In this document: positions 2,745-58,471 of the stretch, piece by piece | How positions within the stretch are numbered: the stretch's first letter is position 1 | Layout of the letters: each line of letters begins with the position of its first letter | Source of the DNA: Nitrosopumilaceae archaeon | Lineage (GTDB): Archaea; Thermoproteota; Nitrososphaeria; Nitrososphaerales; Nitrosopumilaceae | Direction: 5' to 3' | NCBI GenBank assembly: GCA_965209085.1 | Contig: OZ242376.1 | Span: forward strand, 1,408,001-1,472,000 | Length of the DNA stretch: 64,000 bases | Made by a program: the position numbers and the translations under genes | Notes under the pieces: generated by a model | What the model was told of the DNA's origin: nothing | Databases searched by the model: none | What the model saw: the letters and a program-made list of their open reading frames with translations, nothing else

Positions 2745-3178
2745 CGTCTTGGTTTCTCCTTTTTGCCTATGACAAGCTCGTGCAATGAGGTATCGTTTAC
2801 TTTGAATACTTTGAATCTGACTCCAGGTATATCACCCATGGCTCCACCCTGTGTGGCGCCCATTCCTTCCACATGCACCTCGTCGTGTTCGTCAATAAAG
2901 TTCATGGCCCCATCACGCGGCAGAAATGCCGTAATAGTTTTGCCATTTTTTATCAATTGTACGCGCACACATTTTCGGACAGCAGAGTTTGGCTGTTTTG
3001 CCTCTATGCCGACTTTTTCCAAAACAATTCCGCGCGCTTGCGGAGATCCTGCCATCGGGTTTGCCTTGCGGTCAAGTCCAAGCTCGCGGCGTTTGTATCT
3101 AGATATTGCCCAGCGTTGTTTTTTACGCTTTAAACGTAAAACGCGTCCTGCAAACAAACCAAGTGGAGACTTTGCCAT
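2741..3178 (-). CDS. rps12: 30S ribosomal protein uS12
   Basis: [29 protein letters not shown]. Confidence 0.98.
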
Positions 3179-3184
3179 CTGTCA

Positions 3185-3649
3185 TTACAGCTCCATCATT
3201 GTCCTTTGCGGCGTGTTTATCATTATGCGCGAAATATCAAAATATCTTCGTGCAAGAATTTTTGCCCTCTCTACGTTGCGCCCGTTGCGCCCCACTGCAA
3301 GACCCTTGTTGTTTGCACCAACCATGACTGTTGCTTGCAATCCTCCAAGATCATCTTTTGATATTGTAACATCGGTAACGAGTTTTTCATTTATCGCCTT
3401 TGCGATGAATTTTTCCGGCTCTTTTATATATTCCACAACCTCTACGGTTTTTTGGATTTTGTTGATTAGTGATTTTATGTTGACAGCACCCTTGCCTATG
3501 GCTTTTCCCATGTCGCCCGGTTCAACCACGAATATTATACGATCAAGTTTTTCATCTTCCACACAGTCTTTAGGTTGCGTATGTGTGACTTTTTGAAACA
3601 GTGAAATGTATTGTAGTTGTTCTGTGGATAATTTTATAGATTGTTTCAT
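3185..3649 (-). CDS. nusA: Archaeal NusA (two KH domains)
   Basis: GKAIGKG and GLAVGRNG KH motifs; conserved position in the rpo operon. Confidence 0.95.
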   Translation of the reverse strand: MKQSIKLSTEQLQYISLFQKVTHTQPKDCVEDEKLDRIIFVVEPGDMGKAIGKGAVNIKSLINKIQKTVEVVEYIKEPEKFIAKAINEKLVTDVTISKDDLGGLQATVMVGANNKGLAVGRNGRNVERAKILARRYFDISRIMINTPQRTMMEL

Positions 3650-3697
3650 GCGAATGCCATTCTACCGTGGTTTTTAGAGCAGACATTTAAACTTATT

Positions 3698-3991
3698 TTA
3701 TACATTATTTGCCTCCTTGCCGATTATTGATCTTACAGTAGCATCAGGTATGGATGATATTGATATTGCTGAGACTCTAAACTGTACACCGCAAAATTTT
3801 CCCAAAGCGACCGATGTTCCATCAAAGTCCTTGTATGGCACCTTTAATTTTTCTGCAAATCCAGACTCTGCGGATTTTGATACCACAACTAGCTTTGCTT
3901 TTGAGACGTTTGCGGCAACTTGTTTTTGCCCAAAAGAGCAGTTGCCCTCTTTTATCGAATCCTTTAGTGTTTTCTCCAAGAGTGTTACCAT
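3698..3991 (-). CDS. rpl30e: 50S ribosomal protein eL30 (L7Ae/L30e family)
   Basis: GTSVALGKFCGVQFRVSAISI; lies between rpoA and nusA. Confidence 0.88.
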   Translation of the reverse strand: MVTLLEKTLKDSIKEGNCSFGQKQVAANVSKAKLVVVSKSAESGFAEKLKVPYKDFDGTSVALGKFCGVQFRVSAISISSIPDATVRSIIGKEANNV

Positions 3992-4075
3992 GATGTAAAC
4001 AATTCTTATGATGGCTTTATAGTTTTACGTTATTCAACTTTGCATTTCTGACGCCAAAAAGGTATGTTTGGTTCG

Positions 4076-7000
4076 TTATTTTTTCTTGGCAACTTGCATG
4101 TACAAGTCAACTGTGCCGGTTCCAATCGGTATGTTGCTTCCCACGATGACATTCTCTGTAACACCCTTTAGTCGTTCAGTCTCGCCTCCAAGAGCGGCTC
4201 GTGCTATGGTTGGAACCGTGATTTCAAATGCAGCTCTGGCCAAAACGCTGTCTTTTGTTCCCGCAATACCGTGCCGTCCAATCTGCTGCATATATCCCCT
4301 AGAGCACATTAGATCTGATACGAGCATGATGTATCTTAGATCCACTTCAAGACCCTGATCTGCTAGTGTGTTGTGTAGCTCGTTTATGAGTGAGTTGCGA
4401 GCTGCCTCGATTCCCAGCGCTCCGGCAATTTCAAATACATTGTTTGTGCGGACATTTTTTCTGTCAATGCCCTCTACTGCCAACACTTTTGCAAGATTTG
4501 AACCCGTGGTTTGTATGACCCATTGACCGTCATTTTGTACCATTGTGACGCGTTCAATGTCAGGTACGCCCTTTACAGTGGTGTTTAGTACCTTGTTGCG
4601 TATTGTTATAACGGTGGGTACATCTGATTCTTCTACAAGTTTTAAAACAAGAATGTTGTCAAATTCTTCAATCTTGAATTTTTTGTTTGATGTTAGCACG
4701 TCCACTATATCCTGCATTGTACATCCTCGCTCCTTTAGTCTATCCTCGTTGAATGTTATTTTGATTTCTGTTGCATAGTCTGTATCTATTTCGCCTACAA
4801 GAATGTTGATTTTAGTTTGTAAAATATTTCGTGCAATGGAAACTGCCTTTTCGCGCGAAGTTTTTGATTCATCATCAAGGTAAATATCCATAGTGGGGGT
4901 GTTTGGTTTTTTGCGCGCATCCACCAGTTCAATCAGCCGTGGAAGACCCAGCGTAACGTTTCTTTCTCTAATTCCTGCAAAGTGGAACGTACGCAGCGTC
5001 ATTTGTGTTCCAGGCTCTCCAATAGACTGCGCGGTAACTATTCCCACTGCTTGGCCCGGTTCTACTTTGGCGCGGTTGTACAAGCTAAGACCTTTTTTGG
5101 CCACTTTTTCTATGCCTTCTTTACTCAGATCAGCTTTCATGAGTGCATCAGTGACAATTTGGCGCAGTCGCGGGTTGTAGGTTTTGGCGTATTTTTTAAC
5201 TGCAGAATCCCTGTCATGCACGGTTGATTTTGCGCCCGAATCAACTATGATTTGTGATTCGATGAGACGGTTGATGTTGAAAGCCTCACCATGATCGCTC
5301 TTTGCCACGTCGATGCCATCCTCACCGTACAAGAATTGTATGATATGGCCGTGTGTATCACGTACCGTTCCATCATATTCCAAACGTATGTGCTCTAGTG
5401 CGTTGATAAGTCTACGTTGCATATATCCACTCTGCTGTGTTCTAACTGCCGTATCCACAAGTCCTTCACGTCCTCCCATGGCGTGGAAGAAAAATTCCAA
5501 TGCCGAAAGACCTTCACGATAATTGGATTTTACAAATCCGTGCGCATCTGGGTTGTCATCGTGTTCTTCAAAGTGCGTCAGTGCCCTGTTGTTAAATCCG
5601 GTAAGCAGTCTTTTTCCTCGTCTTGACTGTTGGCCTAGCGCACCTGCCATCTGACCGATGTTGAGTGAGGAGCCACGGGCTCCAGTTGTAGCCATTATTT
5701 TTCCAGCGTTTGTATGATCAAATGCTTGATCTGCGGAACTTCCGGCCAAATCCCTGGCTTTGGATAGTTCGTTTACAATGTATGCCTCCAAAGCCTCGTT
5801 TGGTGAGAGACCACGGGTAAGCTTTAATGTTCCTTTTTTGTAATCGCTAATAAATCCGTCAATTGTTTTGTAGCTTTTTTGTATGTTGTCCAATATGCCG
5901 TTGCGTACTTTTTCATCTAGTTCTAGATCCGCATAACCGTAGCTAAATCCATAGTGTGTGATGAATTGTTTTGCTATAATCAAGATCGAGTTTAAGAATA
6001 TTTTTGCCGGTTCGTTACCGTAATCTTTTGCAATTCTGTGCAGAACACTTTCAGGCTCTTCTGCACCGATGGATGATTTGTCAATTACGCCGCTGATGAG
6101 TTCACCGTTTTTAATTACAACATCTTTTACCTTATCAGACGTTCCTTTTGCCCATTTTGACGTCATTACATAATTGAAATCTTTTGGAAGAAAGAGTGAA
6201 AATAGCTGTTTTCCAGTATACAGTTTGCCTGTTTTTGACGGAGTAGGAAGATTACCCGAATATCCACCAAGCATTGCAAGATTTGCAAATTCTTCAGCCG
6301 ATAGGAACGTATCGTCTTTTGTCAAAAGATAAGAGCCGGTGATAAAGTCACGCAGTCCGCCGATAATTGGTCCGCCATATCTTGGAGAGATTAGCTGATC
6401 CTGAACCCTCATAAGCAACAGCGCTTCGGCTCTGGCCTCTTCGCTTTGCGGCACGTGCAGATTCATCTCATCGCCATCAAAGTCAGCATTGTACGGAGGA
6501 CATACGGACGGATGTAGACGGAATGTTTTGCCCGGCAGAACGTGTACGTGATGTGCCATTATTGACATTTGGTGGAGTGATGGTTGTCTGTTGAACATTA
6601 CAATGTCCCCCTTTAGCAGATGACGTTCCACTAGATATCCAATCTCCAAGGATTCAGCTATTGTTGATCGGTCTTCTACAAAATCCAGACGAATTTTTAC
6701 ACCATCTGGACGCACGATATAATTTACTCCAGGATATGTGTCAGGTCCGTTTATGACAAGATTGCGCATGCGTTCAATGTTCCATTCGGTTACAATTTCT
6801 GGGATTGTAAGTTTTTTTGCAATTACTTCTGGAACTCCTACTTCGGATAAATCCAAATTTGGATCAGGGGATATGACAGTCCTGCTTGAAAAGTCAACCC
6901 TTTTGCCCGAGAGTGATCCTCTAAATCTGCCTTCTTTTCCCTTTAATCTTTGTGTCAAAGTCTTCAACGGTCTGCCCGAACGGTGATGGGCTTGTGGAAT

Positions 7001-24498: not shown

Positions 24499-24879
24499 TT
24501 ACTGCTCTAAAATTATGCGGTTATTGTGTACTGACATTACAGAACCCCCGTGTTTTTTTATTTCCAGTTTTAGCCTCATATCAAGCGTGGCCACTATTCC
24601 CCCATGTTTTTCAACGTGCCGTATTAATGCCCCATCTGCCCGGCGCCCTCCAATCTCTATCTCTGGCATTTTTTTTGCCCGCTCCAGCGCAGATAATGCT
24701 GTCGGACTTTTTTCAGGATCTTTTGATAGTCCGTAAAGTTCGCGTAAAACTGTATCAGGTGCAAGAAATCTTACAGGTCCAATTTCATCATCAAGTGAAT
24801 CGATGTTTTTTATCCGCGAGTTTGCCATGTGCATCAAAAAGCTGGTATCGCACAGTACGTCAGGCAACTGTTCCAGCAC
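24499..24879 (-). CDS. PIN-domain protein (Fcf1/Utp24-like)
   Basis: VLCDTSFL, VLREL, ADGAL, VATLD; overlaps the aIF2-gamma 3' end. Confidence 0.85.
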   Translation of the reverse strand: MLEQLPDVLCDTSFLMHMANSRIKNIDSLDDEIGPVRFLAPDTVLRELYGLSKDPEKSPTALSALERAKKMPEIEIGGRRADGALIRHVEKHGGIVATLDMRLKLEIKKHGGSVMSVHNNRIILEQ

Positions 24880-26131
24880 CGATTAATCGCCATCTGTCAG
24901 TGATTCTGCTGCTGATGGCGGCACGACCTTTTTTGAATATGCATACGGGACGTCTAAATTCCACAGTTATTTTTCCGTCTTTTGCCTTTGTAACTTTACA
25001 AAGTTCAGGCGAGGTGCCTACACTGAACCTCAGCATGTCGCCTATTTTTATCGGAGGTACTTTTACAGTAGATGACATTCCGACTGCAGAATCAAAAAGA
25101 CTAGTCTCAAATGATGCACTCATCATACTTTCAGGAAGAGTTCCAGGTTTGCCTATTACAGCACCAATCAGTGAATCACCGCCGGTCATCGAGGGATCCA
25201 GTTTTGTTCCAATAGCCACGAGTCCTCCGGGAAGAACAGTATCCACCAAGCCAGCTCCGGTTCCAAGTGAATCAATCGTTGTTATGATCGGAGTGTACGT
25301 ATTTTTTTTGCCTTCCTGTACTCCGGGTTTTATTTCGATCTCATCGCCCACTTTGAAAACTCCCACAGTCAGCGATCCCCCTATAACACCGCCCTTTATT
25401 TTTGGTATTTTTGTGCCAGGTTTGTTTACATCAAACGAACGCAGTACGTGCATTACCGGATCAGCTTTGCTGTCGCGCTCTGGTGTTTTTATCTGCGATT
25501 CAATCAAACCCACAAGTGCGTCTTTGTTCAGACCCGACTGTGCCGAAACTGGCACGATTGGCGCGTTTACTTTGAATTTTTTCATAAATTTTTCCATGTC
25601 AGAATGATTCGCAATTGCCTCATCATATGTCAACAGATCAACTTTGTTTTGCACCACCACCAGCTGTTTTATTCCAAGAATTTGCAGTGCCAAAAGATGT
25701 TCTTCAGTCTGCAGCTGTGGTACTTTTTGATCAGCTCCGATTACCAAAATGCCGCCATCCATCAGGGCGGCGCCAGATAGCATGTTTGCCATAAGACTTT
25801 CGTGGCCCGGACTGTCCACTATGCTTACCACCCGGGTAAGTTCGGATTTTTTCCCACAATTGGTGCATTTTGATTCTGTGGAATATCCCTCAGGTTCCGG
25901 ACATTTGGAGCATTTGTAAAACGCCACATCCGAATATCCCACCCGTATTGTAATTCCGCGTTTTAGTTCCTGGCTGTGCGTGCTGGTCCACACGCCGGTA
26001 AGCGACTGTACAAGTGTGGTTTTTCCATGATCCACGTGTCCTGCGGTTCCTATGTTGATGCAAGGTTGGCGTCCGTATTTTTTTACATACCAGTCTGGAA
26101 GATCATCTTTCCAATGTGTCAATATGCACAT
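24860..26131 (-). CDS. eif2g: Translation initiation factor 2 subunit gamma
   Basis: GHVDHGKTT, ELKRGITI, Zn ribbon, DSPGHE, QNKVD; true start may be a few codons downstream. Confidence 0.97.
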   Translation of the reverse strand: MCILTHWKDDLPDWYVKKYGRQPCINIGTAGHVDHGKTTLVQSLTGVWTSTHSQELKRGITIRVGYSDVAFYKCSKCPEPEGYSTESKCTNCGKKSELTRVVSIVDSPGHESLMANMLSGAALMDGGILVIGADQKVPQLQTEEHLLALQILGIKQLVVVQNKVDLLTYDEAIANHSDMEKFMKKFKVNAPIVPVSAQSGLNKDALVGLIESQIKTPERDSKADPVMHVLRSFDVNKPGTKIPKIKGGVIGGSLTVGVFKVGDEIEIKPGVQEGKKNTYTPIITTIDSLGTGAGLVDTVLPGGLVAIGTKLDPSMTGGDSLIGAVIGKPGTLPESMMSASFETSLFDSAVGMSSTVKVPPIKIGDMLRFSVGTSPELCKVTKAKDGKITVEFRRPVCIFKKGRAAISSRITDRWRLIGAGTVA

Positions 26132-26169
26132 GGGTATTCCCCGTATGTTTAAGTTATTCTTTTTTCAAT

Positions 26170-26216
26170 ACTGTAAACTTGGTGTATGCGCACTAGTATG
26201 GATCTTCTTGGAATTG
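26170..26216 (-). repeat. End-repeat copy A
   Basis: Reverse strand CAATTCCAAGAAGATCCATACTAGTGCGCATACACCAAGTTTACAGT. Confidence 0.8.
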
Positions 26217-26251
26217 AACCAAAAAAATGGTCTATTATTTTCACAATAATA

Positions 26252-26455
26252 TCAATCCATGCCATCATGTTCTAATTTAGAACGCAAATAACGCATATCC
26301 GGACCACCTTTTATCCTATTACAAATTCCACACGAGTCCGCACCAGCGTCCATGCCGCTACTAGATCTAGGTTTTATATGATCAACTTGTAAATTTTATC
26401 CTGTAATGGTTTTTACAGCCATTGCAAAACTTGGATTGTTTTTCATAATCTGAAG
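26252..26455 (-). pseudogene. HNH endonuclease domain remnant
   Basis: YEKQSKFCNGCKNHY, a frameshift, then NLQVDHIKPRSSSG...CGICNRIKG...MRYLRSKL; no N-terminus. Confidence 0.72.
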
Positions 26456-26522
26456 ATTTTAACATTAAAGTTTCTGAATTAAATAAATAGTAAATACTGA
26501 ATTAAAATGCAATCTTACATAC

Positions 26523-27250
26523 TTGGGAATAATAATTAAATCTAGTATAATAAATTATTACAGCCAATCTATTACTTCTCCGCCCTCTTCGTATGGAACG
26601 GAATCGGTGTCATCATTCACAAGTAATCATATTAATATTGTTGATTATATATATTTTCATATCGACGAATTATTCTTAAGAGAATTACGTACAGAATTTG
26701 ATCAATATATGAGCATTATAAATATTCTAGAAAGAAAAGCTCAAAATCTAAGTGTCATATCTACCATATTAATTACAATATTAATTGGTACTAAAATTCT
26801 TGATAATAATGCTTCATTACACGTACTTGTTCCATTATCTATTACTGTTGGTTTATTATTAGCATCAATTGTATCTAGTCGTTTTGCAGCTGGCATTCAT
26901 GGACAAGTAATGCATATTAATTTTAGACAATTTTTTATTTTAAATCGTGTTGGAGGTGAACAATATTCTATAAATGATGATAAAATTAATCAATTCATAA
27001 TACATGATTCAATAACAATAAATGGAAAAAAATCTTCTACTAGTGATGCATCCCAAGAAAATAAATCAATTAATCTGCAGATATGTCTAATCAACGAATA
27101 TAATGGCTTTACATAATGCAGTACGAAATGGTAAACGTATCGCTAAACAGGTTAAACGTGCTCAAAAATATTTTAATCTTGGAGTAATTTCATCAGTTAT
27201 TACAGTAATCATATTATCATCATATTTGGCAAAAATTATACCGAATTAAC
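26523..27250 (+). pseudogene. Frameshifted 3-TM membrane protein resembling Pycsar effector (PycTM/DUF5706) topology
   Basis: ERKAQNLSVISTILITIL (TM1), TM2, soluble loop; after a frameshift near 27100 continues IMALHNAVRNGKRIAKQVKRAQKYFNLG + TM3 to a stop at 27250; start codon uncertain. Confidence 0.5.
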
Positions 27251-27305
27251 ATCCCCTTGTAACAAAATATTACAAACTCACAATAACAAAAAGATCACTT
27301 TCAAG

Positions 27306-27355
27306 CAATCCAAAGAAGATCCATATTCATGTCCATGTGCCTACAAGTTTACAGT
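27306..27355 (+). repeat. End-repeat copy B
   Basis: CAATCCAAAGAAGATCCATATTCATGTCCATGTGCCTACAAGTTTACAGT. Confidence 0.8.
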
Positions 27356-27365
27356 GCCTTTTTTT

Positions 27366-27788
27366 CTATTTGGATTTTTTTTCAGGTTTATCTTTTGTCT
27401 TTTCTTCAGATTTTGCTCCAGTCTTTTCTTCTTTTTTTGTTTCCGGGATTATGCCGTCCAGTCTGCAGTTTATTTGATACATTTCCTCTGTAATTTGATT
27501 TCCACGCACGAGTTTGCGCTTACGCGTGCCAGTTTCAGCCTTGTTCAAACCCACGCCAGGTGACAATAATACGTATTTACGCGCTCCGCCGTGTACGTCC
27601 TGTCTCATTGGAACGCCAGACTTGTCGCTGCCGCCGGTTATCTTTATTTTGCCTCTAAATCCAACTATGGCCGCGTCCGTTTCTTTGCCAATCTCCAACC
27701 CCAACAACGGTGTAGCCTCGGCATCCTTTAGCTCTTTTGTCATGGATTTTCCCTTTGTGTCAGATATAGTGAGCTTAAAGCTTGCCAT
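27366..27788 (-). CDS. rps6e: 30S ribosomal protein eS6
   Basis: KITGGSDKSGVPMR, RKRKLVRGN. Confidence 0.96.
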   Translation of the reverse strand: MASFKLTISDTKGKSMTKELKDAEATPLLGLEIGKETDAAIVGFRGKIKITGGSDKSGVPMRQDVHGGARKYVLLSPGVGLNKAETGTRKRKLVRGNQITEEMYQINCRLDGIIPETKKEEKTGAKSEEKTKDKPEKKSK

Positions 27789-54658: not shown

Positions 54659-56485
54659 CTAGATTCTTCGTTTTTCGCGGGAAATACTGTCTTTGTTTTG
54701 GTTTGAACCCTCGTTATTTCCAGAATCCTTCTTTTCGGATTTGTCCTGGCGGTCATATCGCCCTCCACTGTGTTCGGATCCTCGATCATCGCTCCTGTTA
54801 AAACGTCCGCCGCTGCGATCTGATCCTCTCTCAAATCTGCCGCCGCTGCTACCTCTATCAGGGCGTCCGCCGTCCCGTCCAGAACCTCTACTTTCAAATC
54901 TGCCGCCGCTACTGCCTCTATCAGGGCGTCCGCCGTCCCGTCCAGAACCTCTACTTTCAAATCTGCCGCCGCTACTGCCTCTATCAGAGCGTCCGCCGTC
55001 CCGTCCAGAACCTCTACTTTCAAATCTGCCGCCGCTACTGCCTCTATCAGGGCGTCCGCCGTCCCGTCCAGAACCTCTACTTTCAAATCTGCCGCCGCTA
55101 CTGCCTCTATCAGGGCGTCCGCCATCGCGTCCAGGACCTCTGCGTTCAAATCTGCCGCCGCTACTGCCTCTATCAGAGCGTCCGCCGTCCCGTCCAGAAC
55201 CTCTACTTTCAAATCTGCCGCCGCTGCTGCCTCTATCAGGGCGTCCGCCATCGCGTCCTGGACCTCTGCGTTCAAATCTTCGATTATCATGTCCAAAACC
55301 TCCACGACCACCGCCGCGTCCGAATCCGCCGCGCGATACCTGGCGTTTTAGAGGATCCGGTATGTCAACTTTTATTCCCATCTCTTTATTCAGATCAGTC
55401 ATCTCTACCTTTACTTTTCTTTTTATCATCTCAAAATCCGGTGCAGACGAGTATGATACTAGTGTTATCGCCTTGCCTTTTTCACCCGCCCGTGCCGTTC
55501 TTCCGATACGGTGAAAGTAAATCATCTCCTGGTTTGGTATGTCATAGTTTATCACCAGAGCTACGTGCGGAACATCTATGCCTCTAGCTGCCACATCAGT
55601 TGCCACCAATATGTCAGCTTTGCCAGTTCGGAATTTTGTCATGGACTGTTCCCGTCTGTGCTGTGACATGTCACCTTCTATGGCTACTGCGTCAAAGCCC
55701 ATTTTTCGAAGATCGTGTGTAACATCCCTGGTACGGTATTTTGTAGAACAAAATACAATTGACTGCATTGTGCCATTTTTCTTTATAAAATCTACTAGAT
55801 GATCCATTTTTTCTTTGTCTCGTATAACCAGAAATGACTGATCTATTCCCTCGCCGCTTAAATCGTCGTTGTCAAGCAGAAACTGTTTTGGATTTCTCAG
55901 ATAATTCTCTGCCAATCTTAAAATTTCAACTGGCATGGTAGCTGAGAAAAGCGAAACCACTTTTTCTTCCGGTGTGAGATCCATGATAAACTGTATGTCG
56001 TCTATAAATCCCATATCCAGCATGGTATCTGCCTCATCCAATACCATGTATGAGATATCGTCCAAATTGACAGAGCCGCGTTTTAAATGATCTATGAGCC
56101 TGCCAGGTGTTGCTACAAGAATTTCCACTCCGCGTTTTATTGCATCCAGTTGCGGCCCCATGCTTTGCCCGCCATATATGGTAGTCACTCGCAGTTTGGT
56201 ATATTTTGCAAATTTTTCAATTTCAACAGATATCTGGTTTGCAAGCTCTCTAGTTGGAGCAATTACAAGTCCTTGAATTCCAGATCCTGGCTGTAATCTT
56301 TCAATCATGGATATAGCATATGCGGCAGTTTTGCCAGTTCCAGTATGAGCTTGTCCTATTACGTCACGACCAGTAAGTAAAACAGGTATGGCAGCTTGCT
56401 GTATTGGAAACGCCTCTTCAAAACCATTTTCGTCGAGCGCGGCGATTATCTGCTCTCCGATTCCCATATCTCTAAATGTTGTCAT
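54659..56485 (-). CDS. DEAD-box RNA helicase with a long RGG/SR-rich repetitive tail
   Basis: Q motif, TGTGKT, PTRELA, DEAD, SAT, HRIGRTAR. Confidence 0.96.
   Translation of the reverse strand: MTTFRDMGIGEQIIAALDENGFEEAFPIQQAAIPVLLTGRDVIGQAHTGTGKTAAYAISMIERLQPGSGIQGLVIAPTRELANQISVEIEKFAKYTKLRVTTIYGGQSMGPQLDAIKRGVEILVATPGRLIDHLKRGSVNLDDISYMVLDEADTMLDMGFIDDIQFIMDLTPEEKVVSLFSATMPVEILRLAENYLRNPKQFLLDNDDLSGEGIDQSFLVIRDKEKMDHLVDFIKKNGTMQSIVFCSTKYRTRDVTHDLRKMGFDAVAIEGDMSQHRREQSMTKFRTGKADILVATDVAARGIDVPHVALVINYDIPNQEMIYFHRIGRTARAGEKGKAITLVSYSSAPDFEMIKRKVKVEMTDLNKEMGIKVDIPDPLKRQVSRGGFGRGGGRGGFGHDNRRFERRGPGRDGGRPDRGSSGGRFESRGSGRDGGRSDRGSSGGRFERRGPGRDGGRPDRGSSGGRFESRGSGRDGGRPDRGSSGGRFESRGSGRDGGRSDRGSSGGRFESRGSGRDGGRPDRGSSGGRFESRGSGRDGGRPDRGSSGGRFERGSDRSGGRFNRSDDRGSEHSGGRYDRQDKSEKKDSGNNEGSNQNKDSISREKRRI
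54831..55279. repeat. Coding tandem repeat, 7 x 63 bp plus a partial unit
   Basis: TCAAATC recurs at 54831, 54894, 54957, 55020, 55083, 55146, 55209 and 55272; encodes FE(S/R)RG(S/P)GRDGGR(P/S)DRGSSGGR. Confidence 0.97.
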
Positions 56486-56578: not shown

Positions 56579-56635
56579 TGAATCTGTGAGGTTATCGTGC
56601 ATTTCCACGCCTAAATTTCTTAAAATTCTAGATCG

Positions 56636-56804
56636 CTATTTTTTCCATATTACCCTAACTACCACTAGGCTAATCAAAGCTGTCAACGAGAACGTCATAA
56701 CTACCACCATTAATCTTGCCAATCCGTCAAATCCAAAATATGCCATGGGTATGCCTATGATCTGACTGAATGAAAATTATGAATGTTTTTTTTCCTTTGC
56801 CCAT
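56636..56804 (-). pseudogene. Frameshifted small two-TM membrane protein
   Basis: MGKGKKTFIIFI, then in a shifted frame SQIIGIPMAYFGFDGLARLMVVVMTFSLTALISLVVVRVIWKK*. Confidence 0.45.
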
Positions 56805-56844
56805 AAAGTATGACTTTATCATACCTTTTTTTAATCATACCTAC

Positions 56845-57875
56845 ACCATAACGGCCATTATTGACAAGATTGAACGGAACGAGAAACGATTAGAATCAAT
56901 GCAAAACGAGATTGATGCAAAAAACAGAATGATTGAATCCCTTCTTCAACGCCATCGATCATGCTATGAAAACTCAAACACTCCGTCTTCAAGCAGGTCT
57001 TTGCAGCAAAAAGAGTAAAAACATGACACGTATTGCACGTGAAATCGGAGATCTACCTCCAAAGGGCAAAGCCAGAAGGAAAACAAGGATACAGATGTAT
57101 CTTGCATAAACACAATCCATCAAGTATTGTAAGACATGATGTAGAAAAAATCAGATGTGTATGCAGTTCCAGGATGAAATACTCACATACGATGACCCAA
57201 GATATGTTGGACTACAAACAATCTGTTGCAGTTGAAACGCCACGAGATCGAGGTTCTCGTCTGTCCGAATTGCAATTGAATGCATAAAGCAGAAAACGAT
57301 CTGCCAAGAATGGGATCGTACGGTGAGAACATTGTGGCATTTATCGGACAGTGTAGAGCAGAAAGACTGCCCATGCATGCAATTCCAAACATGGTAAAAC
57401 AGTATGCAGTATAACAATCGTAACATCCACAGTATCCAACGTACTCTCAAATATTACAGATTCAATGGAAAATGACGCCAAATCCATCACAAACGAGGTA
57501 ACAATCTCACCCCATGTTCATATCGATGAGACATCGTACAGTTTGGATGGAGATCTTGTATGGATATTGGCATTGATGCACAAAAACACGGTGGCAATGA
57601 TCATGAACAAGAGCCGCGGCGTGTACGTAATGGATTCGTATATGGACAAATAAGATGATATTGTGATAACTGACGGATACAATGTGTACAAAAGATTTGA
57701 TTCTGGCAGTATGCATCAGCGGTGCAGGGTTCATGAAATACATGAGGCAAAACATGTAGGCATGTATGCAGGGCGGCGTGATTCTATGATGAGGATGTCA
57801 AACTTTCTTACCTGCATTTGGACATGGAAAATGCAGGGCAAAAGCGTGTTTGACGAGGTGTTGGCTATTGTTTAA
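56845..57875 (+). mobile_element. Degraded IS66-family transposase
   Basis: Coiled coil + YENSNTPSS, HIDETSY..VWI, ITDGYNVY..HQRC.VH, TCIWTWKMQG; multiple stops/frameshifts and an internal deletion. Confidence 0.82.
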
Positions 57876-57938
57876 TAGGTAAATTCATACGAATAAATGG
57901 CAAACGTTGATATAAAATGCAAGCTTGCATACTTGCGA

Positions 57939-58151
57939 TTAAAGTTTTAAGCCCAATTCTCGTATTATATCATTAACATAAATTGTAGGTAACATTCGTT
58001 CATATTGAAAATATCTAGTTTTATTATTTTCAGGATTACTAATTATCAATTTGTTACTCGCATTAGTGGGATTTGGGTTTTGACTGATATTTCCTCCTAA
58101 TACTGTAAGAAGATTATAAGCCTCATGTCCGCTAATCCATTCGTCTCCCAA
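57939..58151 (-). CDS. HicA-like small protein (toxin fold, catalytic GSH motif not seen)
   Basis: ISGHEAYNLLTVLG...LPTIYVNDIIRELGL fits the HicA pattern; overlaps the HicB-like gene. Confidence 0.5.
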   Translation of the reverse strand: MGDEWISGHEAYNLLTVLGGNISQNPNPTNASNKLIISNPENNKTRYFQYERMLPTIYVNDIIRELGLKL

Positions 58152-58350
58152 TTTTAATCACTTTTGACTCCTCTAGTTCTTTACCTTCTTTATTCATATA
58201 TTTGAGATAAAAATCAACACCTTCTTCTAAATTCTGTTTTAATTTATCATCCGTTTTTGCAAATACTGAAACTGCAGGATATTCTGCACATTTTCCTATA
58301 CAATAACCATCGTATGATTTCTTAATCATGTGGATGTCATTATTACTCAT
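58132..58350 (-). CDS. HicB-like antitoxin
   Basis: DGYCIGKCAEYPAVSVFAKTDDKLKQNLEEGVDFYL; GAGGTG Shine-Dalgarno upstream of the ATG. Confidence 0.7.
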   Translation of the reverse strand: MSNNDIHMIKKSYDGYCIGKCAEYPAVSVFAKTDDKLKQNLEEGVDFYLKYMNKEGKELEESKVIKIGRRMD

Positions 58351-58418
58351 ATTTTGCTGCACCTCTGTAAATAACCCACCATGTTTACATTTAAACTAAG
58401 CGATCAGCATTTTTAATC

Positions 58419-58471
58419 CAATCGAAAGAAGATCCATAATCATGCCTATACACCGATAAGTTCATAGAACC
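58419..58471 (+). repeat. End-repeat copy C
   Basis: CAATCGAAAGAAGATCCATAATCATGCCTATACACCGATAAGTTCATAGAACC. Confidence 0.78.

Follow-up and report, generated by a model that had tools for sequence, protein, structure and literature searches.

How does a block of AT-rich DNA come to stand between two genes of the translation apparatus in a compact archaeal genome? The question is raised by a stretch of 64,000 nt (hereafter the window) from a Nitrosopumilaceae archaeon (assembly GCA_965209085.1, contig OZ242376.1, positions 1,408,001 to 1,472,000 of the forward strand), in which the genes eif2g (24860-26131, reverse strand) and rps6e (27366-27788, reverse strand) are separated by an island of 1192 bp at 26167-27358. 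Positions are those of the window unless a genome position is stated. The GC content of the island is 29.4%, compared with 41.2% for the genome, and values of 25-30% inside it contrast with 43-50% in the neighbouring genes. A first-pass annotation, made from the sequence alone, had described the island as a non-autonomous cassette mobilised in trans. We conclude that it is very probably the fossil of an IS6-like transporter insertion sequence (IS) from which the transposase gene has been deleted.

The island is bounded by inverted repeats of about 50 nt that consist of two blocks each. A 12-mer, ACTGTAAACTTG, at 26170-26181 is matched at 12 of 12 positions by its complement at 27344-27355, and a 13-mer, TATGGATCTTCTT, at 26197-26209 has its complement at 27313-27325; the blocks are spaced by 15 nt at the left end and by 17 nt at the right end. 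Both blocks had been placed correctly in the first-pass annotation, as had the low GC content of the insert, and the bipartite structure is a real family trait, with two blocks conserved over 15 aligned ends, although the repeats extend 3 nt farther outward than had been drawn. The outer features of the island are:

26159-26166, no strand: left copy of an 8-bp target-site duplication, CTTTTTTC, abutting the left tip
26167-26216, forward strand: left terminal inverted repeat (nhmmer profile E 4e-11; aligned with 14 other ends from the genome)
27306-27358, reverse strand: right terminal inverted repeat (nhmmer E 1.5e-15; outer block, 17-nt spacer, inner block)
27359-27366, no strand: right copy of the target-site duplication, TTTTTTTC, abutting the right tip

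The left tip, AATACTGT, starts at 26167 with AA in place of the GG of the family and is continued by the outer block, the spacer, the inner block and GGAATTG, while the right tip, GGCACTGT, ends at 27358. A single perfect 12-mer inverted pair is unremarkable on its own in so T-rich a region, since it appeared in 76 of 300 dinucleotide shuffles of the segment 25500-28100, and this much would suit a chance match or a host regulatory palindrome or terminator hairpin that had been split by foreign DNA. Two co-linear inverted blocks were however obtained in only 1 of 2000 shuffles, and no RNA family was found at threshold: a search of 25900-27600 against Rfam (E <= 1) gave one match of 19.5 bits, for which the gathering score is 65.7. 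The 13-mer occurs 3 times in the window (0.09 expected).

The comparison with relatives decides this point. The flanking genes were matched in 37 of 41 genomes (40 relatives and this genome, G000), and in all 17 of the 17 genomes of the host family with both flanks on one contig, the matched segments were at most 305 nt apart. When the two island flanks are aligned to G001, a relative from the same genus, both cover one set of 8 columns in a single CTTTTTCT stretch; the distance between the matched flanks is 69 bp in G001 versus 1275 bp in this genome, and the called open reading frames (ORFs) of rps6e and eif2g in G001 are separated by 30 nt. Neither repeat block is present at this site, which is a precise empty site, and the island is an insertion with an 8-bp duplication. 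The insertion target was the spacer of about 34 nt that runs from the stop codon of rps6e to the promoter of eif2g, the last base of the right duplication copy being the first base of that stop codon (27366-27368, reverse strand). The two copies of the duplication agree at 7 of 8 positions and correspond to one site in G001, contrary to the first-pass statement that no target-site duplication was visible; the comparison of the spacer among relatives that had been proposed there has thus been run and gives a site without the repeat. Because the site is empty in G001, the repeats are not host sequence. With about 20 further copies in the genome and a 56-nt copy of 91% identity at another place in G001, the host-repeat explanation is refuted and the probability left to it is negligible.

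Contigs from four sequencing runs, possibly including the source sample, covered the stretch with 0 differences and contained no joint across the island, although such contigs are incapable of showing the absence of an empty allele. In one of the runs, X2, a 348-nt contig (depth ~31) matches the window segment 26222-26578, which covers the HNH and transposase-relic part of the island described below, with 28 differences and 11 gaps; it stands beside an identical contig of depth ~2900 and represents a diverged second version in the same sample. Two smaller observations concern the flanking genes. The lysine-rich C-terminal tail of rps6e (27366-27400 here, 2052-2085 in L007) has a reading frame and a stop codon in this genome that differ from those in G001, and a 15-nt inverted match (93%) between the eif2g and rps6e coding regions (25542-25556 and 27525-27539) is probably due to chance.

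To which family do the ends belong? A search of the 1.69-Mb genome with an nhmmer profile yielded 22 matches to the bipartite end at E <= 0.5. Four zones are recognisable in the 15 aligned ends: a conserved outer block starting GGTTCTGTAAA, a middle that varies and contains an 8-nt insertion in three copies, an inner block that is conserved and contains ATGGATCTTCT, and a GAATTG motif; the family end is about 50-57 nt long, with the consensus start GGTTCTGT. A single 3040-bp element is represented by two copies, b (genome positions 570889-575328) and c (1312905-1315944), the former being split by an unrelated IS of about 1.4 kb inserted in its transposase gene. A perfect 8-bp duplication, TGTGATAA, brackets copy b, whose flanks gave no match in G001 in a search for the corresponding empty site. 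The ends of element c are inverted, with perfect agreement over only 26 nt and weak agreement beyond, and the element encodes an intact 371-aa transposase with a zinc finger and a DDE domain (PF13610 DDE_Tnp_IS240, E 1.4e-15, 58.1 bits with a cut-off of 27), for which the best NCBIfam match is the IS6 family transposase NF033587 (E 1.4e-33, over the whole profile). There is also a weak N-terminal match to an IS1/IS1595-type zinc-binding region, and small ORFs without any family lie on both sides of the transposase gene. The genome search suggested in the first-pass annotation therefore does yield further paired ends, one pair of which encloses an intact transposase. Since the tips carry GG, CTGT is found at positions 5-8, the duplication is 8 bp long and the transposase has a DDE_Tnp_IS240 domain, we consider the family to be IS6-like. 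The unrelated IS that interrupts copy b has more than 25 genome copies of 85-99% identity (for example 572799-574204, 849315-850720 and 256869-258277), and the genome region 470-582 kb is dense in nested elements.

The transposase is widespread in the host family, with matches at E <= 1e-20 in 80 of 200 other genomes and, counting G000, in 20 of 27 genera. The tally includes the unpublished genomes G092, G107 and G108, without which it is 77 of 197; apart from this, the three enter only the tally for an exact degenerate end pattern, which matched 0 of the 200 genomes and was too strict, as G001 holds the 91% copy. Among the elements in other genomes, 19 with a perfect 8-bp duplication range in size from 1454 to 4645 bp, and for this reason we take passenger genes to be usual in the family.

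The interior of the island retains traces of such an element:

26252 to about 26465, reverse strand: putative HNH endonuclease pseudogene in two overlapping frames, with a frameshift near 26390-26400
26455-26532, forward strand: 3' relic of an IS6-like transposase gene that preserves its last 27 codons, interrupted by three in-frame stops (blastn, tblastn and five-way alignment)
26661-27249, forward strand: pseudogene of a membrane protein of about 196 aa with three predicted helices (intact homologues P0002 and P0003)

At the nucleotide level the relic shares 75% identity across 64 nt with the 3' end of the transposase gene at genome positions 1312350-1312413 (blastn E 8e-5) and 78% across 51 nt with a second 3' end (E 3e-4). 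The tblastn match has 56% identity over residues 345-371 (E 4.8), and an alignment with four other transposase 3' ends also shows the match. The similarity ceases abruptly upstream, from which it follows that about 1.03 kb of the transposase gene has been lost. The claim that the island contains no recombinase is thereby correct for a working enzyme and incorrect for a degenerate one. The order of the parts is that of element c: an end, an outward-reading passenger, the transposase, a second passenger and the other end.

Both passengers are broken. The HNH gene reads toward the left end, with a start near 26465 according to our reading of the frame. Its C-terminal fragment matches PF01844 with E 0.011 and 16.2 bits, below the cut-off of 21.4, and BLASTP aligns it with E 5e-7 to a methylase-HNH protein in L111, within an HNH domain that itself passes PF01844 (E 4.8e-12), with the VDH and C-x-x-CN-x-x-KG motifs kept. 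The L111 protein adjoins a family transposase, but this locus has no definable element ends. A similar methylase-HNH gene of 505 aa lies within the bounded L105 element (2987-6674, genome G115) and matches the HNH fragment by tblastn with E 0.023, whereas a word-based homologue search with the 47-aa fragment gave no candidates. The passenger-type genes for DNA methylase-HNH fusions (PF01555 and PF01844) at L105:5098-6612 and L111:5242-6687, both on the forward strand and from G115, each adjoin a family transposase, and the element that contains the L105 gene bears a perfect 8-bp duplication.

The membrane gene has ATC (26661-26663) where its homologues have ATG, and a frameshift near 27097. 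P0002 (196 aa, 80% identity) and P0003 (194 aa, 75%) are intact, both beginning with MDEL and running through the point that matches 27097. The protein family is tiny, with 10 members at E <= 0.001 among 1.84 billion representatives, and no Pfam, PADLOC or NCBIfam family was found for it; the predicted structure of P0002 consists of three long helices (mean predicted local distance difference test score 66.4, too low for a fold comparison). Language-model Atlas clusters with 15% and 12% PycTM members, at a score of 0.93, had pointed to the Pycsar effector PycTM (PF18967), a lead that was not confirmed, as 0 of 8 family members match PF18967 at E <= 1 and the island contains no cyclase. PADLOC gave zero matches to the four ORF fragments of the island. 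The HNH remnant and membrane gene of the first-pass annotation were thus correctly seen as carried genes, both of them broken and accompanied by a transposase relic, while "defence-like cargo" is not borne out. A scan of the island with a sigma-70 promoter and terminator model, which is the wrong model for an archaeon, gave 9 sites where 10.5 were expected and was set aside.

Taken together, the right end of the island has the tip GG, the G at position 7 and the CTGT of IS6-type ends, and the left end keeps the G at position 7 and the CTGT and has lost the GG. As its transposase is represented only by a 27-codon relic with three stops, the island is an IS derivative rather than an IS. The general description of a derivative of a DDE transposon, bounded by terminal inverted repeats, lacking a working transposase and inserted with passenger genes in a core intergenic spacer, was accurate in the first-pass annotation, the family being IS6-like instead of IS481, IS21 or Tn7. 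The original element would have carried a gene for a zinc-finger and DDE (IS240/IS6-type) transposase between two passenger slots, with the HNH nuclease gene reading toward the left end in the first and the membrane gene between the transposase stop codon and the right end in the second. Its insertion into the spacer duplicated 8 bp.

A number of points weigh against the assignment. The duplication at the island is T-rich and its copies do not match perfectly, and with the left tip lacking GG, the exact left boundary leans on the duplication and the empty site. Without a transposase of its own, the island is assigned through its ends, its 8-bp duplication and a weak relic, for which the DNA match is the stronger one, and the family membership is to this extent a probable one judged from sequence. 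No relatives of the membrane gene are encoded in the genome and metagenome contigs searched, and these provide no case of its carriage elsewhere in such elements. As for the reference element, copy c has no target duplication, and its transposase, with 116.3 bits, scores below the NCBI equivalog cut-off of 125 for IS6. Finally, the archaeal members with longer repeats are described in the accessible part of one study as doubtful members of IS6 that may form a family of their own (PMC6807381, Harmer and Hall 2019).

The same evidence bears on whether the island is a functional non-autonomous cassette, of the mobile insertion cassette (MIC) type, that has been moved in trans recently or still is, and delivers defence cargo. 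An island with passenger genes and no transposase fits this description, and the genome also encodes one intact transposase whose element has ends of this type; to the eye, however, the ends of the island are only loosely like those of element c. The conserved blocks are perfect at 25 of 25 positions while the spacer has diverged, as would be expected under selection, but the blocks were defined after the match had been seen, which makes their perfection partly circular. Against recent movement are the AA at the left tip where GG is conserved, the damage to both cargo genes, which also have no PADLOC match, the occurrence of the membrane gene in none of 88 loci around family transposases, and the single copy of the interior in this genome. 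A second copy of the island is missing from the genome, and a form that skips the island is missing from the contigs of the four runs, in which absence is not demonstrable. We therefore consider mobilisation in trans, as claimed in the first-pass annotation, to be improbable, and retain the transposon fossil as the preferred explanation. Whether the fossil lost its transposase in place after insertion or arrived already without it is a closer matter; loss in place is somewhat favoured by the general decay of the island.

A second relic of the family is found elsewhere in the window:

58416-58471, reverse strand: solo copy of the bipartite end (nhmmer E 9e-15), with the third 13-mer at 58426-58438, like the right end of the island over about 50 nt
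57892-57942, forward strand: transposase 3' relic about 480 nt inside the solo end (tblastn and blastn)

Two small ORFs (57939-58151 and 58132-58362, reverse strand) occupy the slot between this relic and the solo end; a guess that they encode a HicAB toxin-antitoxin pair had no Pfam support at E <= 0.1 and was withdrawn. Short overlapping ORFs at 56586-57875 resemble pieces of another, different transposase, and similar pieces adjoin other family ends elsewhere in the genome.

Why was this particular spacer hit? The left tip of the island faces the following feature:

26120-26153, reverse strand: promoter and start region of eif2g, conserved in G001

Counted outward from the tip, a TATA-like CTTAAA (26153-26148) lies at +14 to +19 and the TTG start codon of eif2g (26122) at +45, matching the start called in G001; an ATG is found at 26131. 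As a baseline for the genome, TATA-like hexamers are most frequent at a position 29 nt ahead of the first ATG in 954 long ORFs, which fits leaderless or near-leaderless transcripts. We examined 22 ends in this genome, namely the nhmmer matches at E <= 0.5 minus that at genome position 1533393 (no outer block, tip undefinable) plus one at 2987 from a local search, and counted outward from their tips:

ORF start at +42 to +46: 10 of 22 ends (random 9.8%)
at least 8 of 10 A/T at +12 to +21: 13 of 22 ends (random 16%)
ORF start and A/T together: 9 of 22 ends (random 1.5%)
TATA-like hexamer starting at +12 to +17: 9 of 22 ends (random 3.1%)

The binomial tails of 1e-8 to 1e-11 overstate the case, the windows having been picked after viewing the data. 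As an independent sample we used 60 loci with 3.5-kb flanks from other genomes, of which 19 qualified, with an inverted repeat scoring 15 or more and a perfect duplication of 8 bp, and the other 41, in which the tips could not be located, were set aside:

TATA-like hexamer starting at +12 to +17: 10 of 19 elements
the same hexamer counted by end: 10 of 38 ends (random positions of these loci 2.7%, tail 5e-8)
strict double rule: 4 of 19 elements (random 1.3% per end)
relaxed rule (start at +40 to +50, A/T of at least 7): 10 of 19 elements (random 5.7% per end)

Hexamer starts concentrate at +11 to +17 and within the duplication, with few elsewhere. In agreement with this, 4 of 5 clear-ended elements in an earlier small set with 1.5-kb flanks showed, on one side, a start between +44 and +48. 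Both in this genome and in the 19 elements from elsewhere, a TATA-like box about 14-16 nt downstream of the tip and a start codon 43-48 nt downstream of it are found much more often than at random positions, which shows the preference statistically. On the far side of 14 promoter-proximal elements, the nearest ORF of at least 80 aa was 92-526 nt away in 9 cases and at most 19 nt away in 3, including the island, and none was found in 2. Room to insert at other points was mostly present, and this speaks for targeting more than for survival alone. By our tally there is no orientation bias, the proximal end being upstream of the transposase gene in 5 elements and downstream in 5, and the downstream genes are, by our reading of their names, varied host genes.

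We regard it as fairly probable that Nitrosopumilaceae IS6-like transposons choose their targets by reading the archaeal promoter, inserting so that the nearest tip and the TATA box downstream of it are about 14-16 nt apart. In the intact relatives, the transposase would bind both conserved blocks of each end, cleave at the GG tips and join these to a target cut with an 8-bp stagger. The 8-bp duplication would then fall just upstream of the position of the B recognition element, and the guide could be the bent promoter itself, bound by TBP and TFB, or a motif in the DNA, for example the run of A with a final G that several duplications show. If promoters are read in this way, elements would pile up because the duplication re-creates the target.

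Such pile-ups are observed. A second element tip adjoins the duplication without a gap in the right flanks of L062 and L096 and stands 21 nt away in that of L065, and in this genome the ends d and c are 124 bp apart (genome positions 1312781 and 1312905). The island could accordingly be a chimera of two related elements that piled up at the same promoter site, with an internal deletion that left the outer end of each, and the different length (15 and 17 nt) and poor similarity of its two spacers would agree with this. One element's left and right ends may nevertheless differ, as those of element c do beyond their 26 nt, the order of the parts equals that of element c, and neither a third copy of the duplication nor an internal end was found inside the island. 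We find this origin unlikely and hold to the decay of one element. A separate observation on target sites is that four different elements (2557-4408 bp) with different tips, in L075, L091, L096 and L098 from four genomes and three genera, occupy the same position of a near-identical promoter, with the duplication TTAAAAAG or TTAAAAAA followed by ATATACATAAATA or similar and with genes for secreted proteins of about 285 aa downstream. The shared site is either a repeatedly struck hot spot or an old shared insertion.

By itself the island, a dead transposon from an unusual IS6-like lineage, is ordinary; it demonstrates that two essential translation genes with a spacer of as little as 34 nt can take 1.2 kb of foreign DNA between them. 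Its main interest is as an entry to a widespread group of long-ended, passenger-carrying IS6-like elements in ammonia-oxidising archaea, a lineage set apart by long bipartite ends, regular passengers and promoter-proximal insertion. If targeting by promoter reading is true, these elements place cargo genes beside promoters, those of core genes included, without breaking them. This would be a prokaryotic counterpart of the promoter-tethered integration of eukaryotes, would explain the tolerance of compact archaeal genomes for cargo transposons and would offer a natural tool for placing genes next to archaeal promoters. Elsewhere in the window, a 608-aa ORF resembling DEAD-box helicases (54659-56485, reverse strand) has a C-terminal third that consists of near-identical repeats rich in G, R, D and S.

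Among known systems, the closest is the IS6/IS26 family, in particular its archaeal and long zinc-finger branches. The marks of the family in the available text of a review are 8-bp repeats, GG tips and a cTGTt motif (PMC7986276, Varani et al. 2021), and a conserved G1, G2 and G7 are reported in the part consulted of PMC6807381. The present lineage shares the GG tips, the G at position 7, the CTGT and the 8-bp duplication, the sibling element c has a DDE_Tnp_IS240 domain and IS6 as its best NCBIfam match, and an extra N-terminal zinc-binding region is likewise found in the longer IS6 members. It differs in its bipartite ends of about 50-57 nt, where the review gives 15-20 bp, and in elements of 2.5-4.6 kb with passengers on both sides of the transposase gene, where the same text lists a single passenger-carrying member, ISDsp3. 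Further differences are the promoter-proximal target preference, the score slightly under the NCBI cut-off and the Nitrosopumilaceae hosts, "Thaumarchaeota" occurring 0 times in the available part of PMC6807381. A survey of 20 thaumarchaeal genomes counted 244 IS in 13 families, and its accessible text uses "cargo" 0 times (PMC6563490); promoter, TATA and passenger occur 0 times each in that of PMC13343696. In the full-text searches made, Nitrosopumilaceae IS6-like elements appeared only as family counts, with IS6 copies possibly listed in supplements, and no description was found of promoter-distance targeting by archaeal IS6-like elements.

Like a MIC, the island has inverted ends of IS type, passengers (here pseudogenes) and no transposase gene. 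MIC231 of Bacillus cereus, from the work of Chen et al. in 1999, is reportedly moved in trans by the IS231 transposase and present in several copies. Unlike MIC231, the island is single-copy and decayed, retains a remnant of what was its own transposase gene and comes from a different IS family; for such cassettes in general, a one-line definition is given in the part of PMC6542083 that was available. With the MITEs (miniature transposable elements with inverted repeats) of the IS6 family, of which the accessible review text records two in ISfinder, of 227 and 336 bp (PMC7986276), the island shares the presence of both IS ends and the lack of a transposase. It is not an ORF-free miniature like a MITE, however, since its 1192 bp contain two former genes besides the transposase relic.

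The promoter-proximal insertion of the lineage has its nearest parallel in eukaryotes. The retrotransposon Ty3 integrates at RNA polymerase III promoters via TFIIIB, which contains TBP and a TFB-like factor. The likeness is one of outcome only: Ty3 belongs to an unrelated class of elements, with the integrase of a long terminal repeat retrotransposon and a eukaryotic host, and what it has in common with the archaeal elements is insertion at a near-fixed distance from a TATA-type promoter.

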